Assembly: GCA_043719295.1 (NCBI GenBank)
Contig: JAYSUD010000008.1
Coordinates: forward strand, 8,216 to 72,215
Source of the DNA: a bacterium
GTDB lineage: Bacteria > Patescibacteriota > Minisyncoccia > Phycocordibacterales > UBA918
Direction of reading: 5' to 3'
Length of the DNA: 64,000 nucleotides
In this document: one piece after another, positions 6,262 through 13,086 of the stretch
Numbering within the stretch: position 1 is the first letter of the stretch
Layout of the letters: each line of letters begins with the position of its first letter
Notes under the pieces: model-generated
Database searches by the model: none
Told to the model about the DNA's origin: nothing
Seen by the model: only the letters and a program-made list of their open reading frames with translations
Translations under genes and position numbers: made by a program

Positions 6262-8700
6262 GTGATGTCTAAAAACAGGAGCCCACACATCAATATGAAT
6301 TACAAAAATATAAAAAAGAGAGCATCACGCACAGCAAGTTTTATGCTTCTAGTAGTATCACTCATTGCACCACTAACTTCAATGAACGTAGTAATAGTAT
6401 CCGCAGAGGAGATAGAAGTGAGTGAAAATACTGCCATAGACGAATCTGCATCTGAAACGAATTTAAATACAGTGAATGTTGAGAGTTCTGAAATAGGAAG
6501 TGAGAAAACTACTACTACAACAACGGACGAAATCACTCCACACATACCAAATGCCACAAGTACAGAAATCGAGAGTTCTGAAACTACATTACAAAATGAT
6601 ACTGTAACTGCAAGTTCAACAGTTGCGATAACAACTGGAGACACCATTGCGTTAGCAAATATTCTCACAATTGCAAATACTAACTTAGTTAATTCAACCG
6701 GTACTATTATTTTTTCAAATCTAATTGAAGATCAAGTATCTCCAATTGATTTTCGAACAAACAATACAGCATCGACTTCTTGTGCGCTCGTGTACTGTGA
6801 AAAAAATTCAGGAGTTGAAGTTGCTGTTGTTAATGATGCCTACATACATAATATATTGATGATTGAAGCACAAAGTGGCGACAATAGTGTAGAGGGCACT
6901 CTGACAGAAACCTCAGGAGCAATTGTAACGGGCAATGCGTACGCAGGTCTAAACTTGGTTAATGTAGCTAATTCAAATTTTATCGATTCTCATTACCTAC
7001 TCATTACACTAAACGCGTTTGAAGATGTACATGGTGACATTATATTTCCAAGCTTAAGCAATCTTTTAAGCAATCAAGCGATGGCACTATCTCAAACAAC
7101 AGTGCAGACTAATGTAGCAACTGTTGAGAATTCAACAAACGTTACTGCAGAAACTGGTGCCAATACCTCAAACAGTTTGGTGACGGAGATTATTACAGGA
7201 CAAAGTATTGCAACAACCAATGTACTTAATTTGATTAACAGCACACTCTCAGGTGGCGAGAGTATCTCTATTTTGTTACGGGTTCATGGTACGTGGCTTG
7301 GAACAATTTTTGGAGGTGATCCGCGTCTAAACATAACCGACGCGGGTGATGGGTACTACTATATAACTTCAAATAACGTTGACACCTCAGGTCAAAATAA
7401 TTCGCTTGTAACCGGCACTAGTACTGCCTTAATACACAACGATATCAAAGTACTTGCGGGCACTGGAAATAACACACTATCCGACGTTGAGTCAGGGTTA
7501 ATTGAGACAGGAAATGCATTTTCTGGGGCAAATATTGTCAATATTGCTAACACCAATATCATCGGTAGAAATTGGACCTTAGCAATTATTAACATCTTTG
7601 GAGATTTTATTGGGAACCTTTCTTTTGGACAGCCTGATGTATGGATTGGAGAAAAAATTGCAGTACCAAAGGTTGTTCAAAAAGGTAGTGAAATCACCTA
7701 CACGTTCACGGTAACAAACAATGGTGACGCACCATCAACGCGTACACGAGTTAGTGACGCCTATGCAGCTTCAAATTTAAGCATACTTGAAAGTTCAAAT
7801 CCGTACTTACTCGACGCTGATAACAAATTGGTTTGGGAAATAGGAACTCTGCCTGCGGGAGCAACATCTTTAATTACGTACAAAGCCGTTGTAACTTCAG
7901 ATATTCCCGCAACTAACATCACAAATGTCGTTACCGTTACTTCATACGAAACGGACTTCAATGATAGCAATAACACAGATACAGGCACAGTTAAAACATC
8001 AGTGGTAGGAAATACAACTCAAGGGAGTACTGCAAAACGTGCACAGGTATCTTCTCTAACCGCGCCAGATGTTTTAGAGACAAGGGATTTCGTTCCTCCG
8101 ATGGTCACTCGACTAAACGCTATTTCACGTGTAGCCGAAAGTACTAGTGTCTCTACGCAGACACTTGTTATCAAAAATCAAAGTGAAAAAAGTATTCCAA
8201 ATATTGTCCTTCATGATTATGTAATAAGTCAAAGCGGTGCACAGATAGCAGACGAAGTCTGGTCTATTGGCACACTCCTTCCTTATGAGGAAATTACACT
8301 TAGTTATGATATTTCATTTACACCAGATGCACCCAATGGTCACTATACGCTTTCTACGGCACTTATTATGGAGGATGCCGATATATCGTTTTATGGTAAT
8401 GGTTCTATAGATGTACTCCGCAATTCCCTACCGCTTGCGGATGAAGATTCAGTTGTTTTCTTATCAACTGCAATGATAGAGAGTGTGACACCAAATGAGG
8501 ACACTATCACAGACGATGTTTTCGAGCCAACCTTTGCTTCAGCAATTGGACTTACACCAAATATTGCAGAAGCTGCAGATACAACACAATTGGCATCAGT
8601 TGCTGCATCAAAAACGAATATCCCTTTATCACTTATAATAATCTTTGGAGTAATTGGGTTTCTCGTTCTTATAAGTGCCTACCGTGAGCTTCGTGACTAA
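6262..8700 (+). CDS. Large surface protein with a DUF11-like repeat region and a C-terminal membrane anchor.
   Basis: 812 aa. N-terminal signal/TM, Thr/Ser/Asn-rich beta-type repeats, the segment ITYTFTVTNNGDAPSTRTRVSD typical of DUF11/'conserved repeat domain', and a C-terminal hydrophobic anchor IIIFGVIGFLVLISAY. Start may be Met12 at 6295. Confidence 0.6.
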   Translation: MMSKNRSPHINMNYKNIKKRASRTASFMLLVVSLIAPLTSMNVVIVSAEEIEVSENTAIDESASETNLNTVNVESSEIGSEKTTTTTTDEITPHIPNATSTEIESSETTLQNDTVTASSTVAITTGDTIALANILTIANTNLVNSTGTIIFSNLIEDQVSPIDFRTNNTASTSCALVYCEKNSGVEVAVVNDAYIHNILMIEAQSGDNSVEGTLTETSGAIVTGNAYAGLNLVNVANSNFIDSHYLLITLNAFEDVHGDIIFPSLSNLLSNQAMALSQTTVQTNVATVENSTNVTAETGANTSNSLVTEIITGQSIATTNVLNLINSTLSGGESISILLRVHGTWLGTIFGGDPRLNITDAGDGYYYITSNNVDTSGQNNSLVTGTSTALIHNDIKVLAGTGNNTLSDVESGLIETGNAFSGANIVNIANTNIIGRNWTLAIINIFGDFIGNLSFGQPDVWIGEKIAVPKVVQKGSEITYTFTVTNNGDAPSTRTRVSDAYAASNLSILESSNPYLLDADNKLVWEIGTLPAGATSLITYKAVVTSDIPATNITNVVTVTSYETDFNDSNNTDTGTVKTSVVGNTTQGSTAKRAQVSSLTAPDVLETRDFVPPMVTRLNAISRVAESTSVSTQTLVIKNQSEKSIPNIVLHDYVISQSGAQIADEVWSIGTLLPYEEITLSYDISFTPDAPNGHYTLSTALIMEDADISFYGNGSIDVLRNSLPLADEDSVVFLSTAMIESVTPNEDTITDDVFEPTFASAIGLTPNIAEAADTTQLASVAASKTNIPLSLIIIFGVIGFLVLISAYRELRD

Positions 8701-10013: not shown

Positions 10014-10863
10014 GAAAAAACTAAGAATTGCCTTTTTTGGAACGCCATACGTTGCGCGTGATACGTTCATGAAACTCGTTGCATCAGGTTTTGCACCCGA
10101 AGTTGTTATAACAAACAACGACACCAAACAAGGTCGAGGGCAGACACTCCAAATGTGTGTCACCAAAGTCTGGGCAACAGATGCGAAGATTCCTACCTTC
10201 TCGCCGTCTACAATTGACGATGTTGCAATTGAGGAAATCAAAAAATACAACTGTGATTATGCAGTTGTAGTAGCGTATGGAAAAATACTCCCGCAAGCAC
10301 TTATTGATACCTTCCCTAAGGGAATACTCAACATCCACTATTCCCTCTTACCAAAATACCGCGGTGCATCGCCTGTTGAAAGTGCTTTACTTAATGGAGA
10401 AACGGTAACAGGAGTTACCATACAAAAACTTGTACTTGCTATGGATGCAGGTGACATTATTGCTCAAAAAGAACTCACCATTGGTAAAGATGAAACAGCA
10501 CTACTTCTTAAAGAGCGTCTTATCACACTTGGTACAGAAATGCTTGTTGAAACACTTCCCCTCTTTGAAACAAACGAAGTAACATTCATCTCACAAAATC
10601 ATGAGAAAGCGACGTTTGCAAAGAAAATCAAAAAAGAAGAGCGGGAATTGAAAATTAGTGAAAACTCCCAAGAAAACTGGAATAAATACAGAGCATATGC
10701 TGAATCGCCAGGTACACACTTTTTTGTTCAAAAAAACGGTAAACCTACACGAGTAAAAATTGTTAGCGCTGAACTTACAGACGGAATCTTTACCCCTCTT
10801 CGAGTGATACCCGAAGGAAAGAAAGAAATGGACTTTACAGCATTCTTAAAGAGTTCTACTTAG
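10006..10863 (+). CDS. fmt: Methionyl-tRNA formyltransferase.
   Basis: 285 aa, overlaps def by 8 nt (conserved def-fmt pair). Formyltransferase core NIHYSLLPKYRGASP. Confidence 0.85.
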   Translation: MSEKKLRIAFFGTPYVARDTFMKLVASGFAPEVVITNNDTKQGRGQTLQMCVTKVWATDAKIPTFSPSTIDDVAIEEIKKYNCDYAVVVAYGKILPQALIDTFPKGILNIHYSLLPKYRGASPVESALLNGETVTGVTIQKLVLAMDAGDIIAQKELTIGKDETALLLKERLITLGTEMLVETLPLFETNEVTFISQNHEKATFAKKIKKEERELKISENSQENWNKYRAYAESPGTHFFVQKNGKPTRVKIVSAELTDGIFTPLRVIPEGKKEMDFTAFLKSST

Positions 10864-11635: not shown

Positions 11636-11788
11636 GATAGATTTACTTATATCTTGTATGTATACAGTATACAACGTTTATTCAAACCTGTCAGACAGTG
11701 CTAAACCATAAACACCATAAGGTTGAAAACCCCACAGTTTTCTGTACAATAGCCCTACTTGAAGTAATTCAAGTATAGATTCTAAAGC

Positions 11789-12116
11789 TCCGGTGTAGCT
11801 CAGCGGTAGAGCAATCGACTGTAACATTGAACAATGTTCAAAATAGCAGCCTTATCGAGAAATTGATATTGCAAACAAGGTGAATTGCTGGAACCCCCAC
11901 GACACAAGTCAGGGCAATCAGCAGCCAAGCTTTTGGAGAAATCCAATTGAAGGTCCAGAGACTATCCCTTCGGGGAGTAGAATGCTCACAAATGCATTCG
12001 AAGCGCCTTGCACCGTCAGTGTAGTAATACAACCGGTGATGATATAGTCCACGCCATACAGTAACGTATGAATAAGTGTAATCGATTGGTCGCAGGTTCG
12101 AATCCTGCCGCCGGAG
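11789..12116 (+). tRNA. tRNA-Asn (anticodon GUU) interrupted by a group I intron in the anticodon loop. No CCA is encoded.
   Basis: Exons tccggtgtagctcagcggtagagcaatcgactgt + taatcgattggtcgcaggttcgaatcctgccgccggag fold into a 72-nt cloverleaf. Acceptor TCCGGTG/CGCCGGA, U8, T-loop TTCGAAT, G73, and a 5-nt variable loop that excludes Tyr. Confidence 0.75.
11823..12078 (+). ncRNA. Group I self-splicing intron (~256 nt) within tRNA-Asn.
   Basis: CCAAGCTTTTGG (P5-like), GTCCAGAGACTA (J6/7-P7) and ATATAGTCC (P7'/J8-7) match the group I consensus. The intron ends in G. Boundaries are good to about 2 nt. Confidence 0.7.
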
Positions 12117-12132
12117 CTTTAGAATTTAGAGA

Positions 12133-12153
12133 CCACCCGCAAGGGTGGTTTTT
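12133..12153 (+). terminator. Rho-independent terminator downstream of tRNA-Asn.
   Basis: ccacccgcaagggtgg followed by ttttt. Confidence 0.7.
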
Positions 12154-12162
12154 AAAATTCTT

Positions 12163-12184
12163 AGCTCCGGCGGCAGGATTCGAA
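12163..12184 (+). repeat. Perfect inverted copy (22 nt) of the tRNA-Asn 3' end.
   Basis: agctccggcggcaggattcgaa is the exact reverse complement of the tRNA 3' end ttcgaatcctgccgccggagct. Together with the tRNA it makes a ~35-bp inverted repeat enclosing the terminator. Confidence 0.85.
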
Positions 12185-12238
12185 GACCTTGCCTGATATC
12201 TTTTTGAGGTACGAAATAAAATAGTGACAAGGTGTACT

Positions 12239-12268
12239 GGTCGTGTAACGACCGAAATTCCTGCCGCC
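12239..12268 (+). repeat. tRNA-flanking module: hairpin with TGTAA loop, then GAAATTCC, then a direct copy of the tRNA 3' strand.
   Basis: ggtcgtgtaacgacc-gaaattcc-tgccgcc. The tail is complementary to 12170-12182. Homologous modules at 58386-58413, 62436-62462 and 63420-63456. Confidence 0.6.
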
Positions 12269-12282
12269 TAAACATCCATATT

Positions 12283-12291
12283 CGTGGTATA
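12283..12291 (+). promoter_or_regulatory. Extended -10 promoter element (TGGTATACT) upstream of the HNH gene.
   Basis: tggtatact lies ~16 nt before the ATG at 12307. Pattern only. Confidence 0.4.
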
Positions 12292-12306
12292 CTAAACAAA
12301 ACATAC

Positions 12307-12636
12307 CACATGACCCGTAAAGAAACACGCACCTACGCCGATCGAGCTGAGTATATGAAACTCGCTGTCATTAAACGTCGCAAAAAAGTGCGTGACATGG
12401 CACTTGAATACAAAGGTGGAGTCTGCCAAATCTGTAGATATAGTAAAAGTAAACGGGCACTCTCCTTTCATCACATCAATCCCAAAACAAAAGAATTTGG
12501 TATTTCATACAGAGGCTTTACTCGATCATGGGACAAGACAAAAGCAGAACTCGATAAATGCATTCTGCTTTGCATGAACTGTCATATGGAGATACACGAT
12601 GGAATTACAAAGTTACCAGAACTTTGCATTACCTGA
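12307..12636 (+). CDS. HNH endonuclease (zinc-finger HNH); likely a homing-type endonuclease tied to the adjacent intron-containing tRNA.
   Basis: MTRKETRTYADRAEY...CQICRY...SFHHINPK...CMNCHMEIHDG: HNH motif with CxxC pairs. Start taken at the internal Met after the promoter-like box. Confidence 0.7.
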   Translation, partial: HMTRKETRTYADRAEYMKLAVIKRRKKVRDMALEYKGGVCQICRYSKSKRALSFHHINPKTKEFGISYRGFTRSWDKTKAELDKCILLCMNCHMEIHDGITKLPELCIT

Positions 12637-12682
12637 ACACACCCCTTAACAATACATAAAAATACTATATACTACTCACTAT

Positions 12683-12817
12683 ATGACACGACAAATTGCA
12701 TTAAGCCCAAACAAGAACACTAAAACACGTCCTTATAAATCACCGAAGCGTTTAGAAGCAAAAAGAGTATTGCTTGCAAAGAAAACTAACAAGACAGGGG
12801 CAAAGAAAGCAAAGTAG
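12683..12817 (+). CDS. Small basic protein (44 aa, MTRQIALSPNKNTKTRPYKSPKRLEAKRVLLAKKTNKTGAKKAK); function unknown.
   Basis: Clean ATG..TAG ORF, pI >11, followed by the terminator at 12836-12861. Confidence 0.35.
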   Translation: MTRQIALSPNKNTKTRPYKSPKRLEAKRVLLAKKTNKTGAKKAK

Positions 12818-12835
12818 TAAGAATGAATAAAAAGT

Positions 12836-12861
12836 AAAAACCACCCACAAGGGTGGTTTTT
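12836..12861 (+). terminator. Rho-independent terminator.
   Basis: aaaaaccacccacaagggtggttttt. Confidence 0.7.
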
Positions 12862-13086
12862 ACTTTTTATTGATTTTCTAGTCTCTACAGTTTTGCTAAG
12901 GCAAGTTTATACGTATTACACCCACTGTCATAAAAGTAACGTACTCACGGCATTAGTATGTGGATAGAGAGCATCAAACATACTCACACACTACCTGCAA
13001 TATGCAGTGTGTATAAACAGGGAAACAAGCAGTTTACAAGCAATACTCCATTATAAAATAAACTATCGATTTAACCCTAAAACAAT

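Follow-up and report, generated by a model that had tools for sequence, protein, structure and literature searches.

The window, that is, the whole stretch of 64,000 nucleotides analysed here, carries a tRNA-Asn(GUU) gene into which a group I intron, its core helices P1-P9 intact, is inserted between anticodon positions 35 and 36, and a free-standing HNH endonuclease gene lies downstream on the same strand. Apart from the inverted repeat at 12143..12184 and the bidirectional terminator-like hairpin at 12826..12871, to which no strand is assigned, the features described below are on the plus strand. A tRNA-Asn(GUU) gene split by a 256-nt group I intron had been proposed in the earlier note, and ARAGORN, run with introns allowed, returned the same gene as tRNA-Asn(gtt) with i(35,256), i.e., a 256-nt intron at 35/36. 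Exon 1 (11789..11822, tRNA positions 1-35) ends in CUGU, with U35 preceding the 5′ splice site, and this CUGU was invariant in 80 related genes. Exon 2 (12079..12116) extends from U36 to the discriminator G73, and CCA is not encoded. As the note had expected, the joined exons form a canonical 72-nt cloverleaf, with a U1-A72 pair, the discriminator G73 and the anticodon loop CUGUUAA; the predicted ligated junction reads ...GACUGU joined to UAAUCGAU... The default ARAGORN run missed the gene, and no further tRNA-Asn gene was found in the 64-kb window by ARAGORN or Rfam cmscan. For annotation, this means that the gene is invisible to default tRNA finders, and without intron-aware tools an essential tRNA would be counted as absent from a genome of this kind.

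Upstream of the gene, a sigma-70-type promoter-like site was identified at 11723..11750 (TTGAAA, 16-nt spacer, TACAAT; 10/12 in the consensus scan), which leaves a leader of about 30 nt. The same TTGAAA...TACAAT arrangement was present 5′ of the orthologous tRNA-Asn genes at the related loci L206, L209 and L211. The leader segment 11776..11788 is complementary to the trailer at 12117-12128 and lengthens the acceptor stem by about 12 bp; this pairing corresponds to the inverted repeat I4 (18 nt, 94% complementary). An equivalent leader/trailer pairing of 24 nt, with a different sequence, occurs at L028. Directly 3′ of the tRNA lies a terminator-like hairpin (12133..12155; ACCACCC-GCAA-GGGTGGT followed by TTTTT; repeats D1 and I1), which was not listed by the consensus scan, probably because its stem continues into a 42-nt inverted repeat. 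The tRNA-Asn gene would be transcribed from its own promoter, with transcription ending at the hairpin and T-run past the tRNA. Maturation would then follow splicing, which would yield the anticodon loop, and would proceed by end trimming and CCA addition.

The intron (11823..12078), as delimited by ARAGORN, ends in a G at 12078. The covariance check suggested in the note gave a match to RF00028 (Intron_gpI) at 11828-12071 on the plus strand over the full model length, with 80.4 bits (E 7.7e-19) against a gathering score of 50 bits. The group I motifs reported in the note were located at 11925-11936 (CCAAGCTTTTGG), 11953-11964 (GTCCAGAGACTA) and 12042-12050 (ATATAGTCC), together with the terminal G. 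The conserved core, with GCCAAGC...AGAGACUA...GAUAUAGUCC, resembles that of the Azoarcus intron. Only two ORFs, of 55 and 64 aa and both unmatched, were found within the intron, and neither encodes an endonuclease.

Specifically, the manual structure model comprises a P1 extension hairpin (11823-11838), the internal guide sequence GCAG (11846-11849), which pairs with the exon CUGU and forms a U-G wobble at the splice site, P2 with a GAAA loop (11853-11868), P3 (11876-11882/12004-12010), P4 (11886-11891/11918-11923), P5 (11894-11896/11912-11914), P6 (11924-11926/11952-11954), P7 (11958-11964/12045-12050), P7.1 with a UUCG loop (11965-11976), P7.2 (11980-11999), P8 (12011-12038) and P9 (12055-12070). 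The model was scored on an alignment of 80 related introns, with 500 shuffles and slid-partner controls. In total, 83.1% of the cells were paired compared with 64.5% in the shuffles, none of the 500 shuffles equalled the model, and the slid partners reached 36-43%. Changes on both sides were seen in 60 of the 73 pairs, and the P1-P9 model, including the P3/P7 pseudoknot, is therefore supported by compensatory changes. Individual helices were paired at 97.9% (P2), 86.8% (P3), 97-100% (P4), 92% (P6), 99.8% (P7), 89.9% (P8) and 83.8% (P9); for P7.1 and P7.2 the value across the MAFFT alignment was 61-64%, with gaps there in 29-40 of the 80 sequences. U(-1), the guide sequence GCAG and the terminal G were all invariant in the 80 introns. 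The alternative junction with the anticodon GUA (Tyr), which the note had named as a possible refutation, is ruled out by this invariance, as the intron would then end in U instead of the invariant G. The intron would remove itself by the standard two-step, guanosine-initiated reaction, in which CUGU pairs with GCAG and the 3′ splice site is set by the terminal G at 12078.

The classical group I introns of tRNA genes in bacteria reside in tRNA-Leu(UAA) and tRNA-fMet (cyanobacteria), tRNA-Ile(CAU) (Azoarcus) and tRNA-Arg(CCU) (Agrobacterium). They belong to subgroup IC3 and are inserted at 33/34, 34/35 or 36/37. The window intron shares with them the self-splicing class, a site in the anticodon loop and a P1 formed with anticodon-loop nucleotides, but it differs in its position at 35/36 and in its P7.1/P7.2-like hairpins, which would place it in subgroup IA by the published classification. 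The remark in the note that Asn is not a classical host holds for this classical set, but such a host is no longer unrecognised since Nakagawa et al. (mSystems 2026; PMC13011429; preprint 10.1101/2025.07.03.662931) described subgroup IA introns at 35/36 within genes for tRNA-Asn and tRNA-Asp of Patescibacteria. Two of these introns, in tRNA-Asn of GCA_016700035.1 and tRNA-Asp of GCA_001029755.1, self-spliced in vitro (PMC13011429). The window intron agrees with the published ones in its host tRNA, the U35/U36 site, the U that precedes the 5′ splice site, the terminal G and its length (256 nt; published mean, 257 nt), and the two additional hairpins modelled between P7 and P3′ would fit subgroup IA. 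Moreover, both the published introns and most of the related loci examined here cause the tRNA to be missed by default finders, and it is often mis-called Thr(UGU) at 33/34. A separate ARAGORN call at L013, a “tRNA-Phe with a 271-nt intron” that might have represented a second intron-containing tRNA, was discarded as false, with a poor cloverleaf and no Rfam match. HNH genes lay inside the intron in 4 of the 15 published tRNA-Asn introns, and the remaining introns, being without endonucleases, were considered hardly mobile (Nakagawa et al. 2026, PMC13011429). The HNH family PF01844 is common to those introns and the window. However, the HNH genes of that study were solely intronic, and its text makes no mention of free-standing or neighbouring copies, whereas the window copy lies outside the intron, 193 nt downstream. 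The intron is thus of an already published kind and in itself adds nothing to the 2026 description, and what had not been described is the minority arrangement with a free-standing HNH gene.

The HNH gene (12310..12636) starts 193 nt past exon 2, in close agreement with the roughly 190 nt given in the note, runs from an ATG at 12310 to a stop ending at 12636, and encodes 108 aa of a family that is normally found inside the tRNA-Asn intron. A GTG start at 12232 (134 aa) was rejected because the start of every homologue coincides with ATG 12310. The protein matched Pfam PF01844 with 24.5 bits (cut-off, 21.4) and PHROG HNH families with E-values down to 2.4e-27. All 34 family-invariant residues are kept, including C39/C42/C88/C91, H54-H55, N90 and H96, and H92 is likewise invariant in the family alignment. 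The AlphaFold model (pLDDT 88.7) shows two strands followed by a helix, the beta-beta-alpha metal-finger fold, and a long basic N-terminal helix at residues 9-34. In a fold search all matches were weak, with E of at least 0.04, the majority being to nuclease domains of the HNH type (Cap5, Cas9, the Gme nicking HNH and T5 SciA), and a sequence profile against the PDB gave weak matches in which HNH proteins were mixed with ribosomal proteins. As judged from its invariant residues and from the pN/pS values given below, the protein is probably functional. An exact look-up of the protein in the assembly collection gave no record, and at least 400 homologues with up to 92% identity were found, those named being all from Patescibacteria. 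Pairwise comparisons gave pN of 0.05-0.24 and pS of 0.77-0.86 (saturated), i.e., pN/pS of about 0.06-0.3, and in the closest pair the synonymous sites were saturated even at 92% protein identity (pN 0.05 vs pS 0.79). The HNH family is under strong, long-lasting purifying selection; since pS is saturated in all pairs, these values show purifying selection alone and do not allow a recent horizontal transfer to be dated.

The extended -10 box that the note had assigned to the HNH gene was found as TGgTATACT at 12285-12293. The consensus promoter scan, which requires a -35 element, did not list this site, which has no recognisable -35. Together with a hairpin at the ATG, it makes up a putative control region at 12284..12309, in which the 5′ arm of the hairpin (GTGGTAT, 12284-12290) is formed from bases of the box and the 3′ arm (ATACCAC, 12303-12309) abuts the ATG. 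The extended -10-like motif was detected in 69 of 81 loci with a strict pattern, in intronic and free-standing copies alike, and a stem of at least 6 bp between box and start codon was present in 69 of 73 loci (mean 8.0 bp, compared with 5.3 bp in shuffles). The gene is probably expressed in a manner similar to I-TevI of phage T4, the precedent for such promoter/hairpin control (PMC2988022). In read-through RNA the hairpin would abut the start codon here, and cover it in many relatives, and transcripts from the internal -10 box would lack the 5′ arm of the hairpin and be translatable. As in I-TevI, one arm of the hairpin coincides with the internal promoter-like box and the other lies at the start codon. 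Unlike in I-TevI, there is no Shine-Dalgarno sequence to hide, the predicted hairpin abuts or covers the start codon itself, and the promoter-like site is of the extended -10 type instead of a T4 late promoter.

The HNH protein had at least 549 matches in GTDB, of which the best 80 loci were analysed. The MAG labels of the HNH relatives were mostly Paceibacterota, Kaiserbacteria, Nomurabacteria, Minisyncoccia, Saccharibacteria and Patescibacteria group, the exceptions being three Burkholderiales or Gammaproteobacteria and several unclassified ones; going by these relatives, the host is probably a member of Patescibacteria (Paceibacteria-type). The HNH gene lay inside the tRNA-Asn intron at 65 of the 80 loci, and at 14 it was free-standing next to a tRNA-Asn gene whose intron has no ORF, in four orientations. 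One locus was cut off, so that all 79 assessable loci (79/79) had the gene inside or adjoining a tRNA-Asn group I intron, and no copy away from such an intron was found among these best 80. In the intronic copies, the gene occupies the P1 loop and its 3′ end overlaps the internal guide sequence, which is supplied by the last codons, encoding the conserved tail GITQLP. In the window protein the tail reads GITKLP and the guide-sequence bases are gone. Whether or not the guide sequence is embedded in the last HNH codons is a clean marker of the inside or outside state, as GCAGC was present in the C-terminal codons of 64/64 intronic and 0/16 free copies. The closest relatives of the window protein are the free-standing P0001 (92%) and the intronic copies of L002 (88%) and L003 (83%). 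On these sequence comparisons, the HNH gene is to be identified as the intron's own putative homing-endonuclease gene, placed outside the intron. The view in the note that HNH gene and intron form one mobile unit is thus strongly supported with respect to linkage, although the gene proved to belong to the intron's own family and not to be a separate neighbour.

The neighbourhood def-fmt-HPF-grx-tRNA-Asn is shared by several relatives and the window, and the tRNA-Asn gene in it was found in different states. L211 has an intron-less tRNA-Asn gene (GAGCAGTTGACTGTTAATCAATTGGCCGCAGG), an allele of the kind that the note had recommended looking for, L206 and L207 have the ORF-less intron alone, L003 has an intron with the HNH gene inside, and the window has the ORF-less intron plus the free HNH gene. 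The presence and absence of intron and endonuclease at an orthologous site is a signature of mobility. Additionally, the core of the window intron is 86% identical to that of L051 and 80% to that of L002, whereas for the HNH protein the order is reversed (67% and 88%, respectively). This discordance is suggestive of separate histories of the intron and the HNH gene, but too weak for a claim to be made. Among unselected ORF-less tRNA-Asn introns, an HNH gene adjoined 5 of 45 (about one in nine), and none of 63 had it downstream as in the window. The rarity of such neighbours indicates that most ORF-less introns persist without an endonuclease, which speaks against the homing reading favoured below.

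We consider it probable that the locus comprises an ORF-less tRNA-Asn intron and its displaced cognate endonuclease, which escaped from the intron and works by homing in trans. Fitch parsimony on the HNH protein tree gave an intronic root with at least 10 state changes, and it is from this root that the window copy is read as an escape from the intron. The inferred direction of the move, from the intron to the outside, is not secure, since the tree was built from about 100 columns and carries no support values. The nuclease would cut or nick intron-less tRNA-Asn genes near the insertion site, and repair of the cut allele would bring in both the intron and the endonuclease gene linked to it, i.e., trans or “collaborative” homing, while the host's own gene would be protected because the intron splits the target site. 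Such trans homing by the HNH nuclease is likely; we infer it from the 88% identity to intron-encoded copies.

Collaborative homing is a phage model, in which a free-standing nuclease mobilises an ORF-less intron (PMC3984707, PMC2790892). In cyanophage S-PM2, for example, F-CphI is free-standing next to the psbA intron, which is ORF-less (Zeng, Bonocora & Shub 2009; reviewed in PMC3984707), and mobE of T4 mobilises the nrdB intron (Wilson & Edgell 2009, PMC2790892). The window resembles these systems in having an ORF-less intron and a free endonuclease gene adjoining the interrupted gene, and the same logic would be expected, with the nuclease targeting the intron-less allele and the intron protecting the host copy. 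However, the phage systems concern protein-coding genes and the window a chromosomal bacterial tRNA gene, and cleavage of the target by the HNH protein is here a prediction. Unlike in the phage systems, one HNH family occurs both inside and outside the intron, and the free state appears derived instead of ancestral.

The opposite direction would make the free-standing state ancestral, with an HNH nuclease that targets the insertion site and has not yet recombined into the intron, the route by which phage introns have been proposed to be invaded. An intermediate of this type is predicted by the collaborative-homing model (PMC3984707), the likeness between GITKLP and GITQLP could equally have provided the micro-homology by which the gene entered the intron, and resolution of the HNH protein tree is weak. 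In contrast, the insertion point and the in-frame overlap with the guide sequence are identical in all 64 intronic copies, as after one ancient entry, the free copies occur in four orientations scattered among intronic ones under a root that is intronic by parsimony, and the window gene is nested beside the intronic L002 and L003. We regard this direction as improbable. That the split gene is dead, its intron non-splicing and a second, uninterrupted tRNA-Asn elsewhere in the genome doing the work, is very improbable. The genome is visible over 64 kb only, but the conserved core is intact in each position and helix, the joined exons give a canonical tRNA that has the Asn identity elements, the window holds no other tRNA-Asn gene, and interrupted and uninterrupted copies of the same tRNA rarely share a genome according to the published survey (PMC13011429). 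An HNH gene unrelated to the intron, be it a prophage remnant or a McrA-like nuclease of restriction or defence, that came to its position by chance or by integration at a tRNA gene, is effectively refuted by the linkage data: of the 80 closest loci, 79 have the gene within or next to a group I intron of tRNA-Asn. Many homologues are labelled “5-methylcytosine-specific restriction endonuclease McrA” by JGI, the best family matches are phage HNH families, and part of the tRNA 3′ end is repeated nearby, which is also seen at integration sites. However, integrase or phage genes were not found nearby, and a blastn search of phage genomes with 11700-12700 aligned no more than 65-135 nt of the intron core, in phages of Alteromonas, Pseudomonas and Vibrio, and thus gave no evidence of a prophage at the locus.

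Domestication of the HNH protein, which would now serve the host or the intron as a splicing helper or in another nucleic-acid task, with homing lost, is in our estimation unlikely, though it has several observations on its side. The purifying selection is strong and long-lasting, down to the closest pair, the HNH protein is 61-92% identical over hundreds of species while its neighbours reach 40% (fmt), 43% (HPF) and 70% (def), the linkage to tRNA-Asn is kept in every orientation, and the long N-terminal helix is basic. Selfish endonucleases that are fixed in a lineage are expected to decay, and a function useful to the host would account for the long-term purifying selection no less well than continuous homing. 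Nevertheless, 40 of the 45 ORF-less tRNA-Asn introns have no HNH gene nearby, the catalytic and zinc-binding residues of a nuclease are all kept, and presence and absence at the orthologous locus are as expected of a mobile element. We know of no HNH-family maturase. The two relatives that self-splice in vitro do so free of protein (PMC13011429), so that a helper is not generally required.

If the displaced nuclease does home in trans, the locus would be the first case known to us of collaborative homing in a chromosomal tRNA gene of a cellular organism, and some of the “endonuclease-less” tRNA introns now held to be immobile would actually be mobile. A broader reading, in which the tRNA-Asn intron and HNH gene of Patescibacteria form a loose partnership with repeated exits in any orientation and continuing spread in trans, is offered only tentatively and with some doubt. 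At the level of observation, the single orthologous locus provides a natural series of an empty site, an intron alone, an HNH gene inside and an HNH gene outside, and these four states offer material for studying the ways in which homing endonucleases get into introns and out of them. The published inference that such introns are hardly mobile is qualified by the HNH gene that adjoins about one in nine of the ORF-less introns sampled here, and it is notable that a nuclease supposed to be selfish has been strongly conserved for so long in very small genomes.

The region between the two genes is rich in repeats. The 42-nt inverted repeat I1 (left arm, 12097-12138; right arm, 12143..12184; 83% complementary) includes, at 12165-12184, the T-loop and 3′ acceptor strand of the tRNA copied in inverted orientation, and an equivalent inverted T-arm copy is present at L084, the closest free-standing relative. 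The tRNA-fragment copies at 12165-12184 and 12259-12268 could serve as operator-like decoys of the homing site. Such decoys have been described for I-TevI. The spacer 5′ of the HNH promoter (12169..12268) folds at -46.8 kcal/mol (z -4.5), with a stem GGCGGCAGGA/TCCTGCCGCC that encloses the hairpins CCTTGCC...GACAAGG and GGTCG-TGTAA-CGACC. It is about 80-90% conserved at L082 and L084, and its first hairpin occurs twice at L209, the spacer being single copy in the window. The spacer showed no significant similarity to the intron, and its interpretation as a decayed second intron/tRNA copy (12185-12284) was unsupported, as 43 of 300 shuffles reached the score of a gapped alignment to the tRNA and the intron; the 42-nt inverted repeat, by contrast, is genuine. 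A permissive Rfam scan of 12117-12900 gave chance-level hairpin matches only.

Downstream of the HNH gene lies a small basic ORF of 44 aa (12683..12817), preceded by a promoter-like site at 12646-12673. This ORF had no family match in PHROGs or NCBIfam, and tblastn detected it with 58-73% identity at L103, L051, L028 and L086, near tRNA-Asn at L051 and L086. In some relatives it is conserved next to tRNA-Asn, and it probably does not belong to the intron/endonuclease unit. The ORF is followed by a bidirectional terminator-like hairpin (12826..12871; repeats D1 and I3), which was listed by the consensus scan and in which 12828-12862 is an 83% direct repeat of the post-tRNA terminator region at 12120-12154.

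By default, ARAGORN reported tRNAs for Gln, Leu, Trp and Tyr in the window, four in all, and none at 11789-12116. When introns were allowed, a tRNA-Asn(gtt) gene with a 256-nt intron after position 35 was identified on the forward strand, comprising exon 1 (11789-11822), the intron (11823-12078) and exon 2 (12079-12116; CCA not encoded). The joined exons form a canonical 72-nt cloverleaf with U1-A72, a discriminator G and the anticodon loop CUGUUAA. Based on cmscan against all Rfam families, the single strong non-tRNA match in the window was RF00028 (group I intron), which spanned the full model at 11828-12071 on the same strand with 80.4 bits, above the gathering score of 50 (E 7.7e-19). The canonical tRNA-Asn and the 256-nt group I insert described in the earlier note were thus both confirmed. 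The alternative junction, which would give a Tyr(GUA) anticodon, was rejected because the intron would then end in U instead of G. ARAGORN gives most tRNA-Asn genes of the related loci L002-L081 the label Thr(tgt) and places the intron at 33/34; some others are labelled His, Glu, Ser or Tyr. These calls correspond to the two-base shift of the intron boundary described by Nakagawa et al. (mSystems 2026; PMC13011429).

The secondary structure of the intron was drawn manually, with the Rfam alignment as a guide. It contains P1, formed by exon CUGU and GCAG (11846-11849, forward strand), a P1 extension hairpin, P2 with a GAAA loop, P3-P9 including the P3/P7 pseudoknot, and two extra hairpins between P7 and P3'. 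When the structure was scored against 80 related short introns aligned with MAFFT, standard pairs occupied 83.1% of cells versus 64.5% after shuffling (0 of 500 shuffles as high), and pairing was 36-43% in a control in which the partners were slid by 1-3 columns. Many double changes were found in each of P2, P3, P4, P6, P8 and P9, and P1 and P7 hardly varied at all. Subgroup IA is expected to have two peripheral hairpins, which form cleanly in the window; because pairing at these positions reaches only 61-64% in the alignment, where many sequences are gapped, subgroup IA is regarded as likely. In A4, the alignment of 80 related tRNA-Asn introns, the ORF-less introns of L006, L014 and L190 carry an extra ~45-75 nt in the 5' strand of P4 (columns 113-183), which is absent from the other 77. 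Additionally, the P3-P7 core (11845-11979) is 75-82% identical to short stretches of phages (the Alteromonas AD45 group, Pseudomonas phage ZC08 and a Vibrio phage). These stretches carry the annotation HNH endonuclease in one record and hypothetical protein in four, and three records leave them unannotated; they probably represent related phage introns.

In 95 complete Patescibacteria genomes, 15 tRNA-Asn(GUU) and three tRNA-Asp genes were reported to carry 35/36 group I introns, which were assigned to subgroup IA, and precise in vitro self-splicing was shown for two of them (PMC13011429). HNH (PF01844) endonucleases were encoded by four tRNA-Asn introns; from the prevalence of tRNA introns without endonuclease genes, the authors inferred that horizontal transfer is probably infrequent, and their text does not mention free-standing or adjacent endonuclease genes (PMC13011429). 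The window intron belongs to this kind, and the locus is real and had been read correctly. That Asn is no classical host, as the earlier note remarked, was historically right and has been overtaken by the same study (PMC13011429). Having the endonuclease gene outside the intron is the less common layout; that study does not describe it, and it has close precedents in phages.

The HNH endonuclease gene proposed downstream of the tRNA was recovered as an ORF at 12310-12636, starting with ATG and encoding 108 amino acids that pass the Pfam HNH cut-off; GTG 12232 was rejected as the start. More than 400 close homologues of about 105-110 amino acids were found, with identities reaching 92%, and every one with a named organism comes from Patescibacteria. 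No variation occurs at the two CxxC pairs or the His/Asn/His residues in the family alignment, and PHROG HNH families match the protein (best 2.4e-27). The AlphaFold model (pLDDT 88.7) shows a long helix at the N-terminus and a core of two strands plus a helix; its fold matches were weak and mostly to HNH domains, and no close solved relative was found in the family and structure searches. By these searches, the predicted protein is a member of the HNH nucleases. What the intron is and that its architecture is intact, the tRNA identity and the nuclease family are established.

Scanning one genome per GTDB species yielded at least 549 HNH matches, and the best 80 loci were examined with ARAGORN and Rfam. 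The HNH gene lies within a tRNA-Asn 35/36 intron of about 530-720 nt in 65 loci. Two free-standing copies, L028 and L033, share the window's layout, with the tRNA upstream on the same strand; in the others the tRNA is upstream on the opposite strand (six loci), downstream on the same strand (five) or downstream on the opposite strand (one). One locus was cut by a contig end. None of these best 80 was unlinked to a tRNA-Asn intron, demonstrating that the HNH gene is exclusively linked to it. Specifically, the intronic ORF starts about 30-50 nt past the 5' splice site, within the P1 loop, and in 64 of 64 intronic copies examined the last codons (tail G-I-T-Q-L-P) contain ACGCAGC, the guide sequence of the intron, with P2 coming next. 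This motif was found in the C-terminal codons of 0 of 16 free-standing copies. The window protein ends in GITKLP, encoded by ACAAAGTTACC, which is recognisably the same tail, apparently freed from the RNA constraint.

To estimate frequency, metagenome contigs were scanned without bias using a pattern for short tRNA-Asn introns. An HNH homologue was near 11 of the 93 intron-containing tRNA loci found and near 5 of the 45 flanked by 700 nt or more on each side; among the 63 with enough downstream sequence, none had the gene downstream as in the window. According to these counts, ORF-less tRNA-Asn introns are mostly solitary, in line with Nakagawa et al., a minority have an adjoining HNH gene, and the window orientation is rare. 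One metagenome contig, L132, carries a pair of intron-containing tRNA-Asn-type genes separated by about 3 kb (7431-7682, forward; 10390-10657, reverse); such genes normally occur as a single copy, so this pair is unusual.

The nearest relative of the window HNH protein is the free-standing P0001 (92% identity), in whose contigs no ribozyme was seen downstream. The next nearest are the intronic L002 (88%) and L003 (83%), and the window-like free-standing L028 and L033 are far more distant (69-70%). A neighbour-joining tree with Fitch parsimony gave an intronic root and at least ten state changes. Because this tree is short and carries no support values, escape of the HNH gene from the intron is rated as likely rather than proven. 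Four states were found in one gene order, def-fmt-HPF-grx-tRNA-Asn: an uninterrupted tRNA-Asn gene and no HNH gene (L211; grx 62% identical to that of the window), an ORF-less 283-nt intron and no HNH gene (L206/L207; grx 79%), an HNH gene within the intron (L003; grx about 44%), and the ORF-less intron with a free HNH gene of the window itself. L211 thus supplies the intron-less allele in a related genome. Such a patchwork at one site is the usual mark of a mobile intron and endonuclease pair. The suggestion that the intron and the HNH gene form one mobile unit is supported by the exclusive linkage and by the patchwork at the orthologous site, with homing as the presumed means of spread.

The HNH gene has a pS of 0.77-0.86, saturated even in the pair with 92% protein identity, and a pN of 0.05-0.24, indicating strong and long-lasting purifying selection on the protein within and outside the intron. 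Between the window and L003, identity is 83% for HNH, 70% for def and 40-44% for fmt, HPF and grx. A decaying HNH gene is ruled out by this selection and by conservation above the neighbours. Ongoing homing is compatible with the conservation, and the main rival explanation, that the gene is kept for a role useful to the host, fits equally well: it would account for both the long-term selection and the far better conservation than def, fmt, HPF and grx. In the proposed mechanism, the intron would self-splice to give tRNA-Asn, as its relatives and established group I chemistry suggest. The free-standing nuclease would still target intron-less tRNA-Asn genes, as expected from its intron-encoded homologues and phage precedents, and repair of the targeted gene would copy the intron together with the linked HNH gene, i.e., trans or collaborative homing, for which there are precedents in phages (PMC3984707, PMC2790892).

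A consensus scan placed a promoter-like site, TTGAAA-16-TACAAT, upstream of the tRNA (11723-11750, forward strand), which recurs upstream of orthologous tRNA-Asn genes, and a hairpin with a T-run follows the tRNA (12133-12155, forward strand). The extended -10 box ascribed to the HNH gene, TGgTATACT, is present at 12285-12293 (forward strand). The generic consensus scan did not list it; that scan requires a -35 element, and none can be recognised at this site. In 69 of 73 box-bearing loci, intronic and free copies alike, a stem of 6 bp or more (mean 8.0 bp versus 5.3 in shuffles) has the box as its 5' arm, with the 3' arm at or over the start codon. The intron endonucleases of phage T4 have the same layout; there, the hairpin blocks translation of read-through RNA, and a promoter within it gives translatable RNA (PMC2988022). 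Similar control is proposed for the HNH gene, with read-through RNA blocked by the hairpin and internally started RNA translated.

The stretch from the tRNA terminator to the HNH promoter carries a 42-nt inverted repeat (12097-12138 and 12143-12184), within which is an inverted copy of the tRNA T-loop and 3' acceptor strand. By pairing with TCCTGCCGCC (12259-12268), a short copy in direct orientation, this inverted copy forms a stable three-way fold just upstream of the HNH promoter (z -4.5). The window contains a single copy of the fold, which is conserved in the closest free-standing relatives. L209 has two copies of one of the hairpins, beside a truncated 5' tRNA-Asn copy that includes its promoter (260-450). 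An intron remnant was considered and rejected, as the fold has no recognisable intron similarity. An inverted tRNA-Asn 3' end is also present in L084 (1-100), and a partial 3' copy lies upstream of the tRNA-Asn gene of L013 (3905-3930). The tRNA fragments may be left over from imprecise repair at a nuclease target, or they may be binding or operator-like sites.

In addition, the pre-tRNA leader and trailer are complementary in the window (11776-11793 and 12111-12128) and in L028 (3530-3553 and 3877-3900), lengthening the acceptor stem by 12-17 bp. The two pairings differ in sequence, and the difference looks compensatory. Scanning of further related loci for inverted repeats detected no such pairing in L015, L033, L051, L065 or L068. 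The stem might hold the exons together in splicing or be a processing site.

The HNH gene of the window sits between the tRNA and a lysine/arginine-rich ORF of 44 amino acids (12683-12817), for which no family match was found. This ORF is 58-73% identical in L103, L051, L028 and L086, near tRNA-Asn in L051 and L086. The terminator hairpins after the tRNA and after this ORF are 83% direct repeats. Short-read contigs often break in or beside the tRNA/intron/HNH block: the Logan contig matching the window (L001) ends at 11815 within exon 1, the L082 and L083 contigs begin 102 nt before the HNH gene, and many GTDB contigs end at most a few hundred nucleotides from it. The breaks might stem from the inverted repeat, from strain polymorphism at the locus or from repeats also present in other tRNA genes. 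A large protein of 812 amino acids, with a signal-like N-terminus and a C-terminal hydrophobic anchor, is encoded at 6262-8700, upstream of the def-fmt operon, and Pfam CLIPPER-family matches are recorded for its gene in the matching Logan contig.
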